Virus record (IMG/VR): IMGVR_UViG_2740892232_000008
Coordinates: 1 to 8,873 of that record
Reading direction: 5' to 3' (one strand)
DNA: 8,873 nucleotides
Source: a virus
Lineage: Duplodnaviria > Heunggongvirae > Uroviricota > Caudoviricetes
This document shows, in pieces, positions 620 to 7,489 of this stretch. The notes under the pieces are model-generated. The model saw only the letters and a program-made list of their open reading frames with translations, searched no databases and had not been told where the DNA came from. The position numbers were made by a program, and so were the translations under genes. Numbering within the stretch: position 1 is the first letter of the stretch; every line of letters begins with the position of its first letter.

Positions 620-3008
620 TCAGCTGATACTGATGCCTGCGGTGGCTTTCTTCATCACCACAACCAGCAAATCGCTGATACTTGCTGTGGGATACCAGTC
701 ATTTACCAGCCATGCTGACACCGAAAACTCCAGCGTCATGTGGCCGTGACCAGCTGGCATATCAATAACACCACTGTAAATCAGCGTATTATCCAGCGCG
801 GTACGGTTATAAATTTCAGCACCATTTTTCTTCACTATCAGGCGGCATGAGGAGTAAATATCAGTATGCTCTCTCTCATGTTTAGCACCGCTGAATGCCA
901 CCGCCGGAATAACAATCTGCCGGTCAAACGGCTGATCGTCATAAATCCTGACGGTAATGGTCCCTGATGGCCACCGCTCCGGTGCCCGGGAGTCCCGCGG
1001 GAAAGCCTTACCCACTGTTTTGACAATATCGCCTTCAATCTGGTTGGCTGACAGTTTCCCTTTAATCTGACAGTTCTCATTTATCGTAACGTTGTTGAGC
1101 GTCCCGGCGTTCGCATTCACACTGCCACTGATATCTGCATTTTTAGCGGTCAGCTTTCCGTCCGGTGTCATGGAAAATGCAGGAGGATTACCGCCGCTGG
1201 TAATGGTGGGAGCCGTCAGATATTTCAGGAACACTTCATTCATGAATATCTGATCACCCTGACCAACAAACATCGGTTTTGTGTTGCCATTTGCAGGATT
1301 AATCATCGCAATCCTGTCTGCCGCCAGCAGCACCTGACTCTGCATGCCGTCGGGGGTGTTCTCAATACCGACACCGATACCCGCAATATAAAGGCGTCCG
1401 TCCTGCATCTGCTGCAGCTTCACAGCCCACATGCTGTTCAGATTATTATTTGTATCAACCTGAACCTTCTGTATCTGCTGAATTGCCGCACTCTGGTCTT
1501 CCAGTTTCTTATTGACGGTCTGCGTGATTTCATTGCTGACATCCTTAATGGACGTCCTGATTTCAGCCAGGTCAGGCGCAAGCTGACCGTTATCAATCTG
1601 CGTCCACAGCTCCTGAGCCAGATGGGTTTTCCCTATCTCGCCTTTGAAAAAATCCAGATAGCCGGATGCATCATCACTCGGCTGACCAACAGCCTCCACG
1701 AATGCCGATTTGCCAACGGTGTTCACACTGCGAACGTAAAAATAATAATCATAGCCCGGCCTGATATTGATACTGGCGGCTATCCAGTACAGCCCCGTGC
1801 CAAGGTAGCGGGCTGTGGTTTCAACCTGCCTGATATCGGTAATCCGCTTTTCCGAGAACCAGAACTCAAACTGTACCGTCGGGTCATAAACGGCAAGATG
1901 CGGCGTGGCGGTTATCTGAAAATAGCCCGGCGTCAGCTCAATCCTCGACGGTGCTGCCGGTGCGGCAATCCGGAACGATACCGACGCCGGATCTCCCTGC
2001 TGCCCCCACGCATTTACCGCCCGGACTGTCAGCCTGTAGTTCCCCAGCGCCAGTTGCGTGAAGCGGTATGTGGTTTCCGTCGTCCGGGCCGTGCTGACCA
2101 GCCGCTCACTGCCGTCGTCCGCTGTTACGGTCAGACGGAGCAGGAAGCTCACGCCCTTCACCACCTTCGGTGTGTCCCAGCGCGCCAGCACCTGATATTC
2201 CCCGCTGTCTGCAGTGACTTCTGCGGTCAGGTGCTGCACCGCTGGCGGCGTGACACCGTTCACCGTGCCACTCTGTTCGCCGTCAAAGTGCGCCCCGTTA
2301 TCCACGATGGCCTCTTTTTCCGGCACATGCTGCACGGCGGTGATGGCATACGTACCGTCATCGTTCTCACGGATACTCACACAGCGGAACAGGCGCTGGC
2401 GCAGCGTCGGCAGCTTCAGCCCCCACACGCTGTATTCGGCAACGCCGTCAGGAACACGGCTCACTTTCACCTTAAGTCCGTCGGTGACGGACTGAACCTC
2501 CACGCTGACCGGATTACCACTTCCGTCAACCAGGCTTATCAGCGTGGTACCGGAGGATGGCAGCGTGATTTCACGGTCGAGCGTCAGCGTCCGGGTCTGG
2601 CTGTTCACCGCCAGCACGCGACCACCGGTGCTGATACCGGCATAGTCATCATCGCAGATTTCAATGACATCGCCCGGTACATGGCGAAGCCCTTCAGCAC
2701 CCACGCTGAAATCCACGGTCTGCGTCTCCAGCAGTTCCGTTTTAATCAGCCACAGCCCGGCGCGGTGTGCCTGCCCCCGGCTGGTACAGCCAAAGGCATC
2801 CATCTTCGTGACATTACGACCGTAACGGGCAATGGCCTGCGTATCTTCAACAAGCTCTGTCGCCGTCTCCCAGCCGTTGTCCGGGTCAATCCAGTTCACC
2901 TCAACGGCATTATGGCGGTCCTTCAGGGCGCTGAAGCTGTAGCGGAACGGCGCGCCATCATCCGGCATCACCACATTACTGCGGTTATAGGTCCACACCT
3001 TATCCGAC
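620..3008 (-). CDS. J: Tail tip host-specificity protein J (lambda gpJ family), C-terminal ~800 codons; 5' end lost at the N10 gap
   Basis: The 807-aa minus-strand ORF reads through the N-run (XXXX in the translation). Sequence such as ...[39 protein letters not shown]...[63 protein letters not shown]... matches lambda J from about residue 330 onward as I recall it. Stop codon TGA is the complement of 620-622. lom follows immediately, as in lambda. Confidence 0.9.
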
Positions 3009-3018
3009 NNNNNNNNNN
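3009..3018. other. Assembly gap or contig-join spacer (10 N)
   Basis: Run of exactly 10 n. Both flanking genes (J on minus, stf on plus) are 5'-truncated at it and face head-to-head. Confidence 0.95.
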
Positions 3019-5069
3019 AAATGGTGGAAGAAGCGGCACGCAACGCTGAAGCCGCCTCTCAGAGCGCAGCGGCGGCAAAGAAATCCGAAACTGCAGCGGC
3101 ATCATCGAAGAACGCGGCGAAAACCTCAGAAACGAATGCAGCTAACAGCGCACAGGCGGCAGCGACCTCACAGACTGCATCGGCAAACTCCGCGACAGCA
3201 GCCAAAAAATCAGAAACCAACGCGAAAAACAGTGAGACAGCCGCAAAGACGAGCGAAACCAACGCAAAGTCCAGCCAGACGGCAGCGAAAACCAGCGAAA
3301 CGAATGCTAAAGCCAGTGAAACTGCGGCAAAAAACAGCCAGGTTGCAGCAGCCCAAAGCGAGAGCGCGGCAGCCGGTTCTGCGACTTCAGCAGCTGGATC
3401 AGCAACTGCTGCGGCTAACAGCCAGAAAGCTGCGAAGACGAGTGAAACTAACGCAAAGTCCAGCCAGACGGCAGCGAAGACCAGCGAAACGAATGCCAAA
3501 GCCAGTGAAACTGCGGCGAAAAGCAGTCAGGATGCAGCGGCCCAAAGCGAGAGTGCCGCAGCCAGTTCTGCAAGCGCGGCGGCTGCTTCTGCCACTGCAT
3601 CAGCTAACAGTCAAAAAGCAGCAAAAACCAGTGAAACCAACGCAAAGGTGAGCGAAACAGCGGCTGCGAACTCAGCGAAAGCATCGGCAGCAAGCCAGAC
3701 GGCAGCTAAAGCAAGCGAAGATGCAGCCAGAGAGTACGCAAGCCAGGCTGCGGAGCCGTATAAATATGTCTTACAGCCGCTGCCTGATGTGTGGATACCA
3801 TTTAACGATTCGCTGGATATGATTACGGGCTTTTCGCCATCATATAAAAAAATTGTTATTGGTGACGATGAAATAACGATGCCTGGCGACAAGATTGTTA
3901 AGTTTAAACGTGCATCGAAAGCAACCTATATTAACAAATCTGGTGTGCTGACAGAGGCTGCCATTGACGAGCCACGATTTGAACGTGATGGCCTGCTTAT
4001 TGAGGGGCAAAGAACAAACTACATGCTCAATTCGGAAAGCCCTGCCAGTTGGGGGCGATCGTCAAATATGGATGTGCCCGAAACAGGGACGGATAATTTT
4101 GGTTTTACCTATGGAAAGTTTGTCTGCAACGATTCTCTGATTGGGCAAACCTCAGCCATTAATATGGCATCAATTGCTGCAACAAAGTCAGTTGATGTCT
4201 CAGGCGATAATAAACACGTGACAACCTCATGTCGTTTTAAAACAGAACTGCAGGTAAGGTTGCGTATCCGGTTTGATAAATATGACGGTAGCGCAACAAC
4301 TTTTCTTGGTGATGCGTATATTGATACACAAACGCTTGAAATTAATATGACAGGCGGTGCTGCCTCAAGGATTACAGCGAGAGTCAGAAAGGACGAAGCT
4401 ACCGGATGGATTTTTGCAGAGGCAACAATTCAGGCAATTGATGGGGAGTTAAAAATAGGCTCTCAGATACAGTATTCTCCTAAGCAGAGCGGGGCAACCG
4501 TATCTGGTGACTATATTTATCTGGCCACCCCACAAGTAGAAGATGGGCCTTGTGTATCATCTTTTATTATATCAGGAGCGACGGCGGCGACCCGCGCAAG
4601 CGATATAGTTACAGTTCCAATTAAGAATAATCTTTATAATCTTCCTTTTACGGTTCTTTGTGAGGTACATAAGAACTGGTATAAAACGCCAAATGCAGCG
4701 CCACGTGTTTTTGATACCGGCGGTCATCAAACCGGAGCGGCTATTATTCTTGGCTTCGGTCGTTCAACAGATTACGACGGATTTCCTTATTGCGATATTG
4801 GAGGAGCTAACAGACGGGTAAACGAAAACGCATCGCTTGAAAAAATGGTTATGGGGATGCGTGTAAAGTCAGAGCAGTCTACGTGCTCAGTAAGTAACGG
4901 GCATATATCCAGCGAAACAAAAACCACATGGTCCTGTATTCAGAACACCGCAATTATCCGTATTGGAGGCCAGACTACAGCCGGGTTACGTCATTTATTT
5001 GGTCATGTCAGGAATTTCAGAATATGGCACAAGGCATTGACTGATGCTCAGGTGGGGGAGTCAATCTAA
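3019..5069 (+). CDS. stf: Side tail fibre protein (lambda Stf-like repeat shaft plus a distinct distal domain); 5' end lost at the gap
   Basis: The frame is open right up to the N-run, so the ATG at 3021 is internal. LMVEEAARNA...AAKKSETAAASS...AAKTSETNAK repeats resemble the lambda Stf region around MVEEVARNAS...AAKTSETNA as I recall it. The distal ~430 aa are non-repetitive and end ...IRIGGQTTAGLRHLFGHVRNFRIWHKALTDAQVGESI. Stop TAA at 5067-5069. Confidence 0.85.
3261..3638 (+). repeat. Two full 189-bp (63-codon) in-frame tandem repeat units inside stf, with degenerate partial copies on both sides (about 3070-3700)
   Basis: The string aacgcaaagtccagccagacggcagcgaa starts at 3261 and again at 3450 (offset 189). 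The units encode NAKSSQTAAKTSETNAKASETAAK(N/S)SQ(V/D)AAAQSESAAA...ANSQKAAKTSET with only a few substitutions. Confidence 0.85.
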
Positions 5070-5350
5070 TGAAAGATTTAACACTCAAATTTGAAGACAG
5101 GGCCGACTTTTCGGCCTTTATGGATAGCACTGGCTATTATGATGACGAGTCGATGCAGGATGATATTCTTATCGACGTGATAGGTAACGTGTACAAAGAA
5201 ACCGGAGAACTGACTGAAGATGGCGAACCGGTATGTGTTAAGGAAGACGGATATTTTGTAAACGTGCGCATCATTAATGATTCGCAAATATCGTCATTAT
5301 TCGATGAATACGTGGTTGCTGTTGAGCATCAACTTCGTGGCTGGATGTGA
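5069..5350 (+). CDS. Small acidic cytoplasmic protein (93 aa), translationally coupled to stf; function unknown, candidate fibre-tip assembly partner
   Basis: ATG at 5069 overlaps the stf stop (TAATG) and follows a GGGGAG Shine-Dalgarno. The product is Asp/Glu-rich. A paralog sits at the equivalent position after the second fibre-tip copy (7202-7480), sharing DGEP and EGYFVN(V/I)R motifs. Confidence 0.6.
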   Translation: MKDLTLKFEDRADFSAFMDSTGYYDDESMQDDILIDVIGNVYKETGELTEDGEPVCVKEDGYFVNVRIINDSQISSLFDEYVVAVEHQLRGWM

Positions 5351-5359
5351 GGAAGAAAA

Positions 5360-6400
5360 ATGGCTACATCGACAGTAATTCCTGATGACATCAAAACGCT
5401 AAAATCCGACGTTAGCAAATTAAAAAACGATCAAGGAAGCTACGCAACAAAATTATATGTAGACAGCAAAGATGAAATCGTTGGTGACTGGTCTGCTTCA
5501 TGGTATCAGCAGGTATTGCCAACTAGCGGAGCTATATTTGGGAGAAAACTCCGCTCAACTCACAGGACGGCAGGTGTTGAGGATGCGTATTGCGAACTAT
5601 ACCTCAAAAAATGGATAGACAGTCCAGGTAACGCAATGGCGCGCCTTAACCTGAACGATAACGGGACAAACATTTGCTGGGACTTTACCAACCTTTATGG
5701 CGGTACGATGATTTTTCCCGGTGACAGCGGATACCTCAAAATGGGTAACTGCCTTATGTCATACAGCAAGCGTGGAAGTAACGCGCTTATTAAATTTGAT
5801 TACACCGACACATTACAGATCAAATATGCCAATCATGGGTCAACCATGACATTAAACACACAGGGAACCGCTTATGCTGGTGTTACTGCTCAATTGTGGG
5901 GCAACTCCAGCCGTCCTGTTGTTTATGAAGTCGGTGTTGATGGTGGCGCTTATATGTTCTATGCGCAGAAAAATACCGATAACACCTATATGTTAAGCGT
6001 TAATGGTGCATGTCATGCCACCGCATTTAACCAGCATTCCGACCGGGATCTGAAAGACAACATTCAGGTGATCGATAATGCAACCGACCGCATCCGTAAA
6101 ATGAACGGCTATACATACACGCTTAAAGAAAACGGTATGCCCTATGCTGGTGTCATTGCACAGGAAGCTCTGGAAGCAATCCCAGAAGTTGTAGGTTCCG
6201 CAATGAAATATCAGGACGGTGCGAGCGGATCGGAAGGTGAAGAAGGTGAACGTTATTACACAGTAGATTATTCTGGTGTTACTGGCTTGCTTGTTCAGGT
6301 AGCCAGAGAGTCAGACGACAGAATAACAGCACTGGAAGAAGAAAACGCAGAATTAAGACAAAGATTATCTGCAATTGAGGCGGCGCTTGCGTCTAAATAA
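5360..6400 (+). CDS. Short tail-fibre or tail-spike-like protein with a C-terminal intramolecular chaperone (peptidase S74-type) autoprocessing domain
   Basis: AGGAAG Shine-Dalgarno 9 nt after the upstream stop. The C-terminal ~120 aa read HS-DRDLKDNIQVID...GVIAQEALEAIPEVV...YTVDYSGVTGLLVQVARE...ITALEEENAELRQRL, matching the SD(R)xLKxNI / IAQE..E..PE.V / VDYS...LL / coiled-coil pattern of endosialidase and T5 pb1-type chaperone domains. Stop TAA at 6398-6400. Confidence 0.75.
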   Translation: MATSTVIPDDIKTLKSDVSKLKNDQGSYATKLYVDSKDEIVGDWSASWYQQVLPTSGAIFGRKLRSTHRTAGVEDAYCELYLKKWIDSPGNAMARLNLNDNGTNICWDFTNLYGGTMIFPGDSGYLKMGNCLMSYSKRGSNALIKFDYTDTLQIKYANHGSTMTLNTQGTAYAGVTAQLWGNSSRPVVYEVGVDGGAYMFYAQKNTDNTYMLSVNGACHATAFNQHSDRDLKDNIQVIDNATDRIRKMNGYTYTLKENGMPYAGVIAQEALEAIPEVVGSAMKYQDGASGSEGEEGERYYTVDYSGVTGLLVQVARESDDRITALEEENAELRQRLSAIEAALASK

Positions 6401-6406
6401 TATTAA

Positions 6407-6429
6407 GGGGCCGAGCGCCCCGTTTTATT
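6407..6429 (+). terminator. Putative rho-independent terminator after the S74-domain gene
   Basis: GGGGC (6407-6411), loop CGAGC, GCCCC (6417-6421), followed by GTTTTATT. Confidence 0.5.
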
Positions 6430-6442
6430 GGGTAGGATGAAA

Positions 6443-6736
6443 ATGGATATAACACCTTTCCTTCATGCGCTTTGTGCTGTGGCTGCGCAGCTACTGATTG
6501 GTCTTTTTACCGGGAACTGGGCTTACGGGGCGATAGCCGGTTGTACGTTCTTCATTGCGCGTGAACACACCCAGGCAGAATATCGCTGGATCGAAATGTT
6601 CGGGCATGGCAAGCGAATGAATATGCCGTGGTGGGGCGGTTTTGATACACGTGCATGGGATGTGGCAAGCCTGATGGATTTTGCTGTGCCGGTGGTGGCG
6701 TGTCTGCTGGTCTGGCTGTTGGTTAATCGTGGGTGA
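6443..6736 (+). CDS. Small integral membrane protein (~97 aa, two predicted transmembrane helices); function unknown
   Basis: The ORF track starts at a TTG (6428). I prefer the ATG at 6443, which has an AGGA Shine-Dalgarno and aligns with the start of the paralog at 7490 (MDITP...). Hydrophobic N- and C-terminal segments flank a conserved loop AREHTQAEYRWI...MPWWGGFD...AWDVASLMDF.VPVVAC shared by both copies. Confidence 0.6.
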   Translation: MDITPFLHALCAVAAQLLIGLFTGNWAYGAIAGCTFFIAREHTQAEYRWIEMFGHGKRMNMPWWGGFDTRAWDVASLMDFAVPVVACLLVWLLVNRG

Positions 6737-6879: not shown

Positions 6880-6889
6880 NNNNNNNNNN
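6880..6889. other. Assembly gap or contig-join spacer (10 N)
   Basis: Run of exactly 10 n. The downstream ORF is open to the gap, so it is 5'-truncated. Confidence 0.95.
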
Positions 6890-6890
6890 A

Positions 6891-7205
6891 TCTTCGGCAG
6901 ATGGGCCAGACGGATTTCCTTATTGCGATATTGGTGGATCAAATAGGCGTGTTAACGAAAACGCATCGTTGAAAAAAATGGTTATGGGGATGCGTGTAAA
7001 GTCAGATCAGTCTACATGTGCAGTAAGTAACGGGCGTATATCCAGCGAAACAAAAACCACATGGGAATATATCCGGAGTACAGCAACCATTCGCATTGGT
7101 GGACAAACTACAGCAGGATTACGCCATTTATTTGGGCATGTGAGGAATTTTCGTCTCTGGCATAAAGAGCTAACAGATGCGCAGCTTGGGGAGGTTGTGG
7201 AGTGA
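6891..7205 (+). CDS. stf: Second, diverged copy of the side-tail-fibre C-terminal (LamG-like) tip; 5' end lost at the gap
   Basis: In-frame translation from 6891 reads SSADGPDGFPYCDIGGSNRRVNENASLKKMVMGMRVKSDQSTCAVSNGRISSETKTTW...IRIGGQTTAGLRHLFGHVRNFRLWHKELTDAQLGEVVE*. By eye it is roughly 80 percent identical in protein to 4780-5069. The 78-aa ORF at 6969-7205 in the track is only its tail. Confidence 0.75.
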   Translation, partial: SSADGPDGFPYCDIGGSNRRVNENASLKKMVMGMRVKSDQSTCAVSNGRISSETKTTWEYIRSTATIRIGGQTTAGLRHLFGHVRNFRLWHKELTDAQLGEVVE

Positions 7206-7480
7206 GAGATTTCACGTTGCGTTTCAGTGATAAAGCAGATTTCAGGGCATTTCTCAGGAAACTTAACTGGGAAGAGGACGAAGAGCTGCAGAATGCCGTT
7301 CTGGTTGATGAGATTGGTTTTACGTTCAGTGAGTCAGGTGTTTCTGCTGACGGGGAGCCTGAATACACGCGAGACGAAGGGTACTTTGTTAATATTCGTC
7401 TTCTTGACGATGGCTTTGATGAATCCGTGTTCCGTGAGTGGGTGGTTACACCAGAGCGCCCGCTCAGGGAGTGGTTTTAA
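7202..7480 (+). CDS. Small acidic protein (92 aa), paralog of the 5069-5350 product
   Basis: GTG start overlaps the fibre stop (GTGA at 7202-7205) after a GGGGAG Shine-Dalgarno, the same coupling geometry as the first copy. It shares D(R/K)ADF, DGEP and EGYFVN(I/V)R motifs with the first copy. Confidence 0.6.
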   Translation: MRDFTLRFSDKADFRAFLRKLNWEEDEELQNAVLVDEIGFTFSESGVSADGEPEYTRDEGYFVNIRLLDDGFDESVFREWVVTPERPLREWF

Positions 7481-7489
7481 GGGGAGCAG

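Follow-up and report, generated by a model that had tools for sequence, protein, structure and literature searches.

What does a 346-codon reading frame lying between a side-fibre gene and a membrane-protein gene contribute to the phage tail, and where on the particle would its product sit? The window (the whole stretch of DNA analysed, 8,873 nucleotides, IMG/VR record IMGVR_UViG_2740892232_000008, assigned to the Caudoviricetes) carries this frame at 5360-6400 of the plus strand, between the genes for the side fibre Stf and a 93-amino-acid (aa) protein and the membrane gene, and its extent was confirmed as given in an earlier sequence-only reading, in which it was taken for a short fibre with a self-cleaving chaperone domain. 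The product is probably a receptor-binding fibre subunit of a lambda-like prophage, matured by an S74 chaperone and docked on the Stf side fibre as a distal or branch subunit. The gene and its parts are as follows.

5360-6400, plus strand: short tail-fibre gene, 346 aa, precursor of 38.1 kDa.
5349-5355, plus strand: Shine-Dalgarno-like GAGGAAG overlapping the stop codon of the 93-aa gene (sequence read directly).
5360-5404, plus strand: N-terminal peptide, aa 1-15, MATSTVIPDDIKTLK, proposed docking peptide (family-wide conservation).
5405-5479, plus strand: heptad-like helical stalk, aa 16-40 (alignment indels among relatives).
5480-5866, plus strand: variable body, aa 41-169, candidate specificity region (per-segment identities).
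5867-6037, plus strand: beta-rich trimerisation-type domain, aa 170-226, predicted end of the mature protein (relatedness to the C-terminus of T4 gp34).
6035-6040, plus strand: predicted scissile bond His226-Ser227 (homology with T5 pb1 and K1F).
6038-6400, plus strand: S74 intramolecular chaperone, aa 227-346, 13.2 kDa (PF13884 and T5 pb1 alignment).
6038-6040 and 6053-6055, plus strand: codons of Ser227 and Lys232, the Ser-x4-Lys dyad.

AGGAAG lies just 5' of the short-fibre ATG, and only 9 nt separate this ATG from the preceding stop codon, which suggests translational coupling with the 93-aa gene.

The C-terminal intramolecular chaperone proposed from the letters was recovered by profile search, with a match to Peptidase_S74 (PF13884) at aa 227-278 (E 4.8e-14, 52.8 bits against a cutoff of 22, profile positions 1-57 of 58), and the SDRxLK-type motif is present as HSDRDLKDNI, with Ser227 encoded where it had been read. 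By direct alignment S227 and K232 correspond to S1264 and K1269 of T5 pb1, and the final helix (about aa 304-345 in the short fibre) aligns too; the link to T5 is based on the Pfam match and this alignment, and endoNF and T5 pb1 were not reached at E <= 0.01 in single-sequence and profile searches of Protein Data Bank (PDB) sequences. The intramolecular chaperone of S16 gp37 (6f45) was found at E 1.3e-3 by single sequence and 4.3e-7 by family profile. Both dyad residues are at least 90% conserved in 65 relatives, and aa 227-346 is the most conserved segment of the family by per-segment identities.

The cut had been placed at Ser227|Asp228, leaving 227 aa; homology moves it to before Ser227. 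In T5 pb1, cleavage is prevented by S1264A, and residue 1263 is the last of the mature fibre, the Ser departing with the chaperone, as it likewise does in K1F according to the same authors (PMC4690869); the endoNF dyad is S911/K916 (PMC8326128). Since the catalytic Ser leaves with the chaperone in both, the predicted products are residues 1-226 and 227-346, with computed masses of 24.9 kDa and 13.2 kDa, and by this analogy the bond cut is most likely His226|Ser227, giving a mature part of 226 aa.

The anatomy of the protein was derived from an alignment of 16 full-length relatives (38-87% identity), together with per-segment identities. The first 15 residues follow the pattern M-x-T-x-T-x-I-P-x-D-I-x-x-L-K, nearly invariant across relatives, with M1, T5, I7, D10, I11 and L14 invariant and P8 and K15 at least 90% conserved, and the peptide is also found in JK16, tonn, JenP1, KurtStettler and HMD-P4. 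The stalk that follows carries 0 to ~5 additional LKSDVST-type repeats in relatives; an AlphaFold2 (AF2) model has a helix at aa 10-30, and relatives yield coiled-coil noise hits in Pfam. Within the body, identity over block 41-125 drops to 39-41% while 126-346 holds 75-98%, and this block appears to swap independently of the remaining protein. For aa 170-226, the family profile matched T4 gp34 structures (PDB 5nxh, 5nxf and 4uxe) at E 1.2e-9 to 1.5e-9, Foldseek gave a probability of 0.96-0.98 for 4uxg/4uxe, and W180, G181 and R185 are invariant in relatives. Across the 38-87% identity range of the family, the catalytic and core residues do not vary. A fixed N-terminal peptide, variable heptads, a mosaic body and a conserved chaperone together look like the conservation pattern of an anchored receptor-binding protein.

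The case for docking on Stf comes from the neighbouring genes, which are laid out as follows.

3021-5069, plus strand: stf without its first ~108 codons, proposed carrier of the short fibre (PHROG 1419 positions 109-793).
3021-3780, plus strand: Ala-rich repeats of Stf, the shaft.
3781-5069, plus strand: conserved C-terminal domain of Stf.
5069-5350, plus strand: 93-aa protein (PHROG 1361), always between Stf and the short fibre.
6443-6736, plus strand: 97-aa hydrophobic protein (PHROG 1443), widespread in lambdoid phages, GC content 53.4%.

The module was surveyed in the window, in eight annotated phages of four lineages and in IMG/VR loci. The order of a large fibre, a ~92-aa gene and a short S74 protein with the shared N-terminal peptide recurs in four siphovirus lineages: in the lambdoids Tritos, PhiR47_1 and PhiR11_1; in Nonagvirus (ESCO3, JenP1) and Seuratvirus (KurtStettler), both genera of the Queuovirinae; in Warwickvirus (JK16, tonn), of the Drexlerviridae; and in the T5-like Salmonella phage HMD-P4 (Tequintavirus), where it directly follows the collar gene for L-shaped fibre attachment. 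In HMD-P4 the module (L134:2254-5885) occupies the site of T5's single pb1 fibre gene. Between lineages the C-terminal domains of the large fibres are 53-57% identical, and the ~92-aa proteins 25-58%. The Stf C-terminal domain of the window is itself 53-57% identical to the large fibres of JK16 and JenP1, and over aa 326-526 it matches NCBIfam NF048003, GTA_spike_fiber (the head spike fibre domain of gene transfer agents, GTA), at E 2.5e-13.

Composition groups the same genes. GC content is 44.1% in the Stf C-terminal domain, 41.8% in the 93-aa gene and 44.6% in the fibre gene, against 53-56% in the tail-tip gene J, the N-terminal part of Stf and the membrane gene, so that the low-GC block 3781-6400 looks like one imported unit and the 97-aa membrane gene lies outside the fibre module. 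The sequence-only reading had the short fibre as an inserted accessory module; the part that holds is that side-fibre cassettes otherwise alike differ in having or lacking the gene, but the gene is no lone insertion and stands third in a module of three genes, which share their low GC and travel together in four lineages.

Further observations concern the proteins of the module. The Stf shaft (3021-3780) consists of long imperfect Ala/Ser/Thr-rich repeats (KTSETNAK...), and the overlapping reading frames at 3059-3499 (minus) and 3136-3651 (plus) are likely by-products of these repeats. The end of Stf, RIGGQTT.G.RHLFGH.RNFR.WHKALTD, resembles by eye the ends of LamG/concanavalin-like domains. 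The 93-aa and 346-aa proteins gave no Tfa hit in Pfam or NCBIfam, so the pair is not a lambda-type Stf plus Tfa arrangement by this test; the 93-aa protein gave a good structural model and no informative structural match. In KurtStettler the homologue (bas22_0024, L135:4426-5958) is 510 aa long, with the chaperone broken off at ~aa 295 and a 215-residue Gly-rich then Cys-rich tail that matched nothing among the proteins fetched; fusion of two genes or a frameshift is a possible cause.

On these grounds the following course of events is proposed. Three chains would assemble from the C-terminus, where the last 120 residues, the S74 chaperone, would trimerise and act as a template on which the gp34-like beta domain and the variable body fold. 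Cleavage of each chain by the Ser227/Lys232 dyad, most likely at His226|Ser227, would follow, freeing the 13-kDa chaperone and leaving a stable trimer of ~25 kDa per chain, made up of the conserved N-terminal peptide of 15 residues, a short stalk of coiled coil and a variable head. The peptide would dock this trimer onto Stf, directly or with the adjacent 93-aa protein, where it would serve as the distal or branch subunit in a lateral fibre made of two proteins and add a second surface specificity, probably for a glycan. We put forward more tentatively, as a possibility we rate just short of an even chance, that this is a mobile plug-in system, in which the 15-residue peptide and variable stalk would dock interchangeable S74 heads (346-aa, 227-241-aa and others) on a conserved GTA-spike-fibre-like Stf head, through an interface unrelated to those of the LtfB/gp15 or T4gp10 type and common to lambdoid, T1-like, 9g-like and T5-like siphoviruses.

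The gene has a history of annotation, and any implied novelty falls away: this is a known, ordinary, catalogued tail-fibre gene of lambda-like E. coli prophages. PHROG 4563 ("tail fiber protein") matches it end to end (E 9.9e-221, residues 1-346 on positions 1-346 of 346), and the protein also matches at least 30 tail-fibre PHROGs. The 1.8-kb stretch around the gene is 98.7-99.3% identical to phages Tritos, PhiR63_1, HannyBb and 2G7b, whose annotated genes share 99% DNA identity with the short-fibre gene; against the virulent Nonagvirus ESCO3, identity is 93% over about three-quarters of the stretch, and the ESCO3 gene is labelled "endosialidase chaperone". At a threshold of at least 80% of the 1.8-kb query covered, the segment occurs in 518 of 5426 complete E. 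coli genomes, under the label "tail fiber domain-containing protein", and the nearest protein cluster (99% identical) has 2132 member sequences.

Whether the short fibre is tied to its neighbours can be asked within the window, which holds two side-fibre cassettes. Their comparison depends on how the window is put together.

3009-3018, unstranded: run of 10 N joining piece A (J gene, flipped) to piece B.
6880-6889, unstranded: run of 10 N joining piece B to piece C.
6969-7786, plus strand: cassette 2, with the C-terminal 78 codons of Stf, a 92-aa gene (7202-7480) and a 98-aa membrane gene (7490-7786), and no short fibre.

The two runs split the window into three assembly pieces. Piece A is the C-terminal two-thirds of J on the minus strand; piece B begins within stf at about codon 109 (from the PHROG 1419 alignment) and stops soon after the 97-aa membrane-protein gene; piece C begins within the end of a second stf. 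J and stf share a strand in related phages and genomes, with J coming first. A related locus of Escherichia ruysiae, the sole close relative outside E. coli in a scan of genome contigs, aligns with piece A in reverse orientation and is 97% identical over the gene region. The N runs are therefore true joins, piece A being inverted relative to the natural order, and the possibility that they mask bases in contiguous sequence was rejected on the same ground. Reading frames 620-3043 (minus) and 1622-3049 (plus) read across N runs and are artefacts.

The counterpart of cassette 1 is a prophage adjoining sitABCD in E. coli KK19-02, and that of cassette 2 a prophage adjoining ompW/yciE/trp in E. coli CE10. 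The cassettes thus belong to two different prophages and form no tandem locus; since they match different prophages on separate pieces, the comparison is one between two prophages. The claim that the gene is present in only one of the two cassettes stands insofar as cassette 2 lacks it, and has to be reworded insofar as the cassettes are separate prophages across assembly gaps. Between them, the Stf ends are 81% identical, the ~92-aa proteins 42% and the membrane proteins 67%.

Beyond the window, 78 IMG/VR loci have a cassette-1-type 93-aa gene and downstream sequence, and in all 78 a gene with the anchor peptide begins 9 nt downstream: 40 are complete and of the 346-aa class, 25 belong to a second class of 227-241 aa, 7 run off the contig and 6 are truncated. 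The cassette-2-type 92-aa gene leads straight to the membrane gene, with no fibre gene, in 45 of 45 loci. The second allele class sits in the identical slot and has the same N-terminal peptide, with PF13884 at aa 116-172 and a mature part of only ~115 residues, mostly coiled coil; its membrane gene starts 10 nt past the stop codon, with no hairpin between. This class was seen in L066 (4292-4996), L082, L062, L077 and ~20 other IMG/VR loci.

Several of these results, and some others, weigh against a short fibre docked on Stf. The 78-versus-0 association is drawn from closely related prophages, and linkage alone may explain it. In the 45 cassette-2-type loci Stf and the ~92-aa gene are still intact although the short fibre is missing, which means that the fibre is dispensable and the 92-aa protein not merely its adaptor; the cassette-2 92-aa protein is, moreover, no more divergent than other ~92-aa proteins and therefore serves Stf, beyond the short fibre alone. 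The evidence for contact with Stf or the 93-aa protein is indirect, and the candidate for a docking strand in Stf (KKIVIGDDEITMPGDKIVKFKRAS, as against KKVKIGDNVVQVASDKQVNFSRAS in the fibre-less CE10 prophage) comes from a single fibre-less lineage. The N-terminal peptide has no similarity to the ~45-aa anchor of LtfB and phiEco32 gp15, which belong to two-protein lateral fibres compared below. The S74 active site is completed by an Arg of the neighbouring chain (T5 Arg1250, endoNF Arg897), and there is no Arg at the position aligned with it, the nearest invariant one being R185. The AF2 monomer of the 346-aa protein is poor (pLDDT 65, pTM 0.31), and Foldseek of this model against the PDB gave nothing at E <= 0.001 and only T4 gp34, at E 0.1; a poor monomer model and fold match are expected for an intertwined trimer. 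Premature stops occur in 6 of 71 complete related copies (L021, L034, L036, L080, L085 and L088; 90-323 aa), and the gene thus decays in some prophages. Literature searches found no experimental work on the short-fibre family, virion proteomics and genetics included. Databases also hold many N-terminally truncated annotations of 254 aa.

Three other explanations were weighed, each of which is less well supported than docking on Stf. The processed trimer might be fixed through its N-terminal peptide directly on the tail tip or a baseplate-like region (J or another tip protein) instead of on Stf, and act as a separate adhesin. The gene forms a separate cistron and has a ribosome-binding site to itself, the mature product is short (~226 aa, or ~115 aa in the second class), and Stf works without the short fibre in other prophages, all of which would suit such an independent fibre. 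We nevertheless regard it as unlikely, as the near-identical anchor peptide is found in lambdoids, Queuovirinae, Drexlerviridae and a T5-like phage, four groups classified apart, and what these phages have in common is the Stf-type C-terminal domain and the ~92-aa protein, directly after whose genes the short-fibre gene lies in every phage examined.

The protein could also be a chaperone acting in trans, helping Stf to fold and binding no host itself, as its position (that of lambda tfa), the ~115 non-chaperone residues of the short class and the labels of homologues ("putative lateral tail fiber chaperone", "endosialidase chaperone") might indicate. The label merely echoes the Pfam name, however, and Stf of the same type occurs without the short-fibre gene; the region upstream of the chaperone combines a gp34-like fibre domain with a mosaic variable region typical of receptor binders, and the solved S74 domains cited here are C-terminal parts of their own fibre or spike, from which they cleave themselves (PMC4690869, PMC8326128). 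Action in trans is accordingly very improbable. That the gene is a decaying remnant or non-structural cargo of a defective prophage, with no present function, would fit its premature stops and truncated annotations and its place near the prophage end, where cargo genes accumulate, but can hardly be credited when the window copy is intact, its catalytic and core residues are invariant across the family, and its DNA is 99% identical in the isolated plaque-forming phages Tritos, 2G7b, HannyBb and PhiR63_1 and 93% identical in virulent ESCO3.

Docking on Stf thus remains the preferred reading, and one further claim about the gene concerns its 3' end, where it had been credited with a terminator of its own.

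6407-6427, plus strand: GC hairpin GGGGC-CGAGC-GCCCC followed by GTTTTATT, possible weak intrinsic terminator (consensus scan).

The hairpin (6407-6421) and its T-tract fit the terminator consensus, which speaks for the claim, but the fold (-11.7 kcal/mol, z = -0.66) is no better than those of shuffled sequences and the spacer is missing in the 227-241-aa class, so that a terminator here is weakly supported. The hairpin is identical in 42 related loci, and because it never varies, covariation is of no use as evidence.

Of the remaining genes, the two hydrophobic PHROG 1443 genes (6443-6736, 97 aa, and 7490-7786, 98 aa) end both cassettes and are 67% identical, and DNA matching at ~95% identity occurs in many lambdoid phages, phage 21 among them. 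Cassette 2 is closely followed by a YkgJ-family Cys-cluster gene (PF03692; 7801-8235, minus) and a gene of the VapA/VapB family (PF05526, the Rhodococcus equi virulence-associated protein family; 8421-8873, plus; E 5.3e-34), which runs off the end of the window; their position suggests cargo at the prophage edge.

The short fibre is a likely host-range determinant in about a tenth of complete E. coli genomes, and its practical value is modest; the modular build of fixed anchor, variable head and self-removing chaperone could serve the retargeting of lambda-like particles. The S74 domain, its chemistry and two-protein lateral fibres are all established. The analysis adds where the chain is most likely cut, that the window is a composite, and that the gene belongs to a mobile lateral-fibre module of three genes with a conserved docking-type peptide.

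Among known systems, K1F endoNF, the founding member of Peptidase_S74, shares the Pfam family and the Ser-x4-Lys dyad, but the short fibre has neither a sialidase nor a beta-helix catalytic domain. T4 gp34 (PDB 4UXE, 5NXF and 5NXH) shares the motif WG..R..V.E.G...FY.Q just before the cut site (E 1.2e-9); gp34 and S16 gp37 (PDB 6F45) are long myovirus fibres, however, with only the ~60-residue module and the chaperone in common with the short fibre. In Klebsiella podophages of the KP32, K11 and KP34 type, a short conserved N-terminal peptide of the second receptor-binding protein (RBP2) plugs into a branching domain of the first (RBP1; PMC13352976). The likeness to the short fibre is one of concept, the morphotype being different, and no T4gp10-like branching domain was detected by Pfam in the Stf of the window.

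The closest precedent in architecture is the branched two-protein lateral fibre of the T5-like phages DT57C and DT571/2, LtfA/LtfB (and phiEco32 gp14/gp15), with S74 ends, in which the shorter, S74-terminated LtfB is thought to be carried by LtfA and to supply the second of two O-antigen specificities, and is not needed on rough hosts (PMC4728585, PMC10713586). Homology to LtfB was rejected (best BLASTP E 0.57 against DT57C LtfB, with unrelated N-termini), and, unlike LtfA, the carrier here ends in a GTA-spike-fibre-like domain without S74 and is separated from the short fibre by a ~92-aa gene; the likeness is, by this analogy, architectural and not one of family membership. T5 pb1 (PDB 4UW7/4UW8) differs in being one fibre of 1396 aa, held on the particle by its own N-terminus and the collar, whereas the short fibre has 226 predicted mature residues, another N-terminus and, before the cut, a gp34-like domain in place of a pb1-like one. 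In both proteins an S74 domain forms the C-terminus, carrying the motif (T/H)-S-D-x-x-L-K and a shared final helix, RLSAIE; pb1 is likewise a lateral fibre of a siphovirus, and in the T5-like phage HMD-P4 it is the module described here that replaces it.

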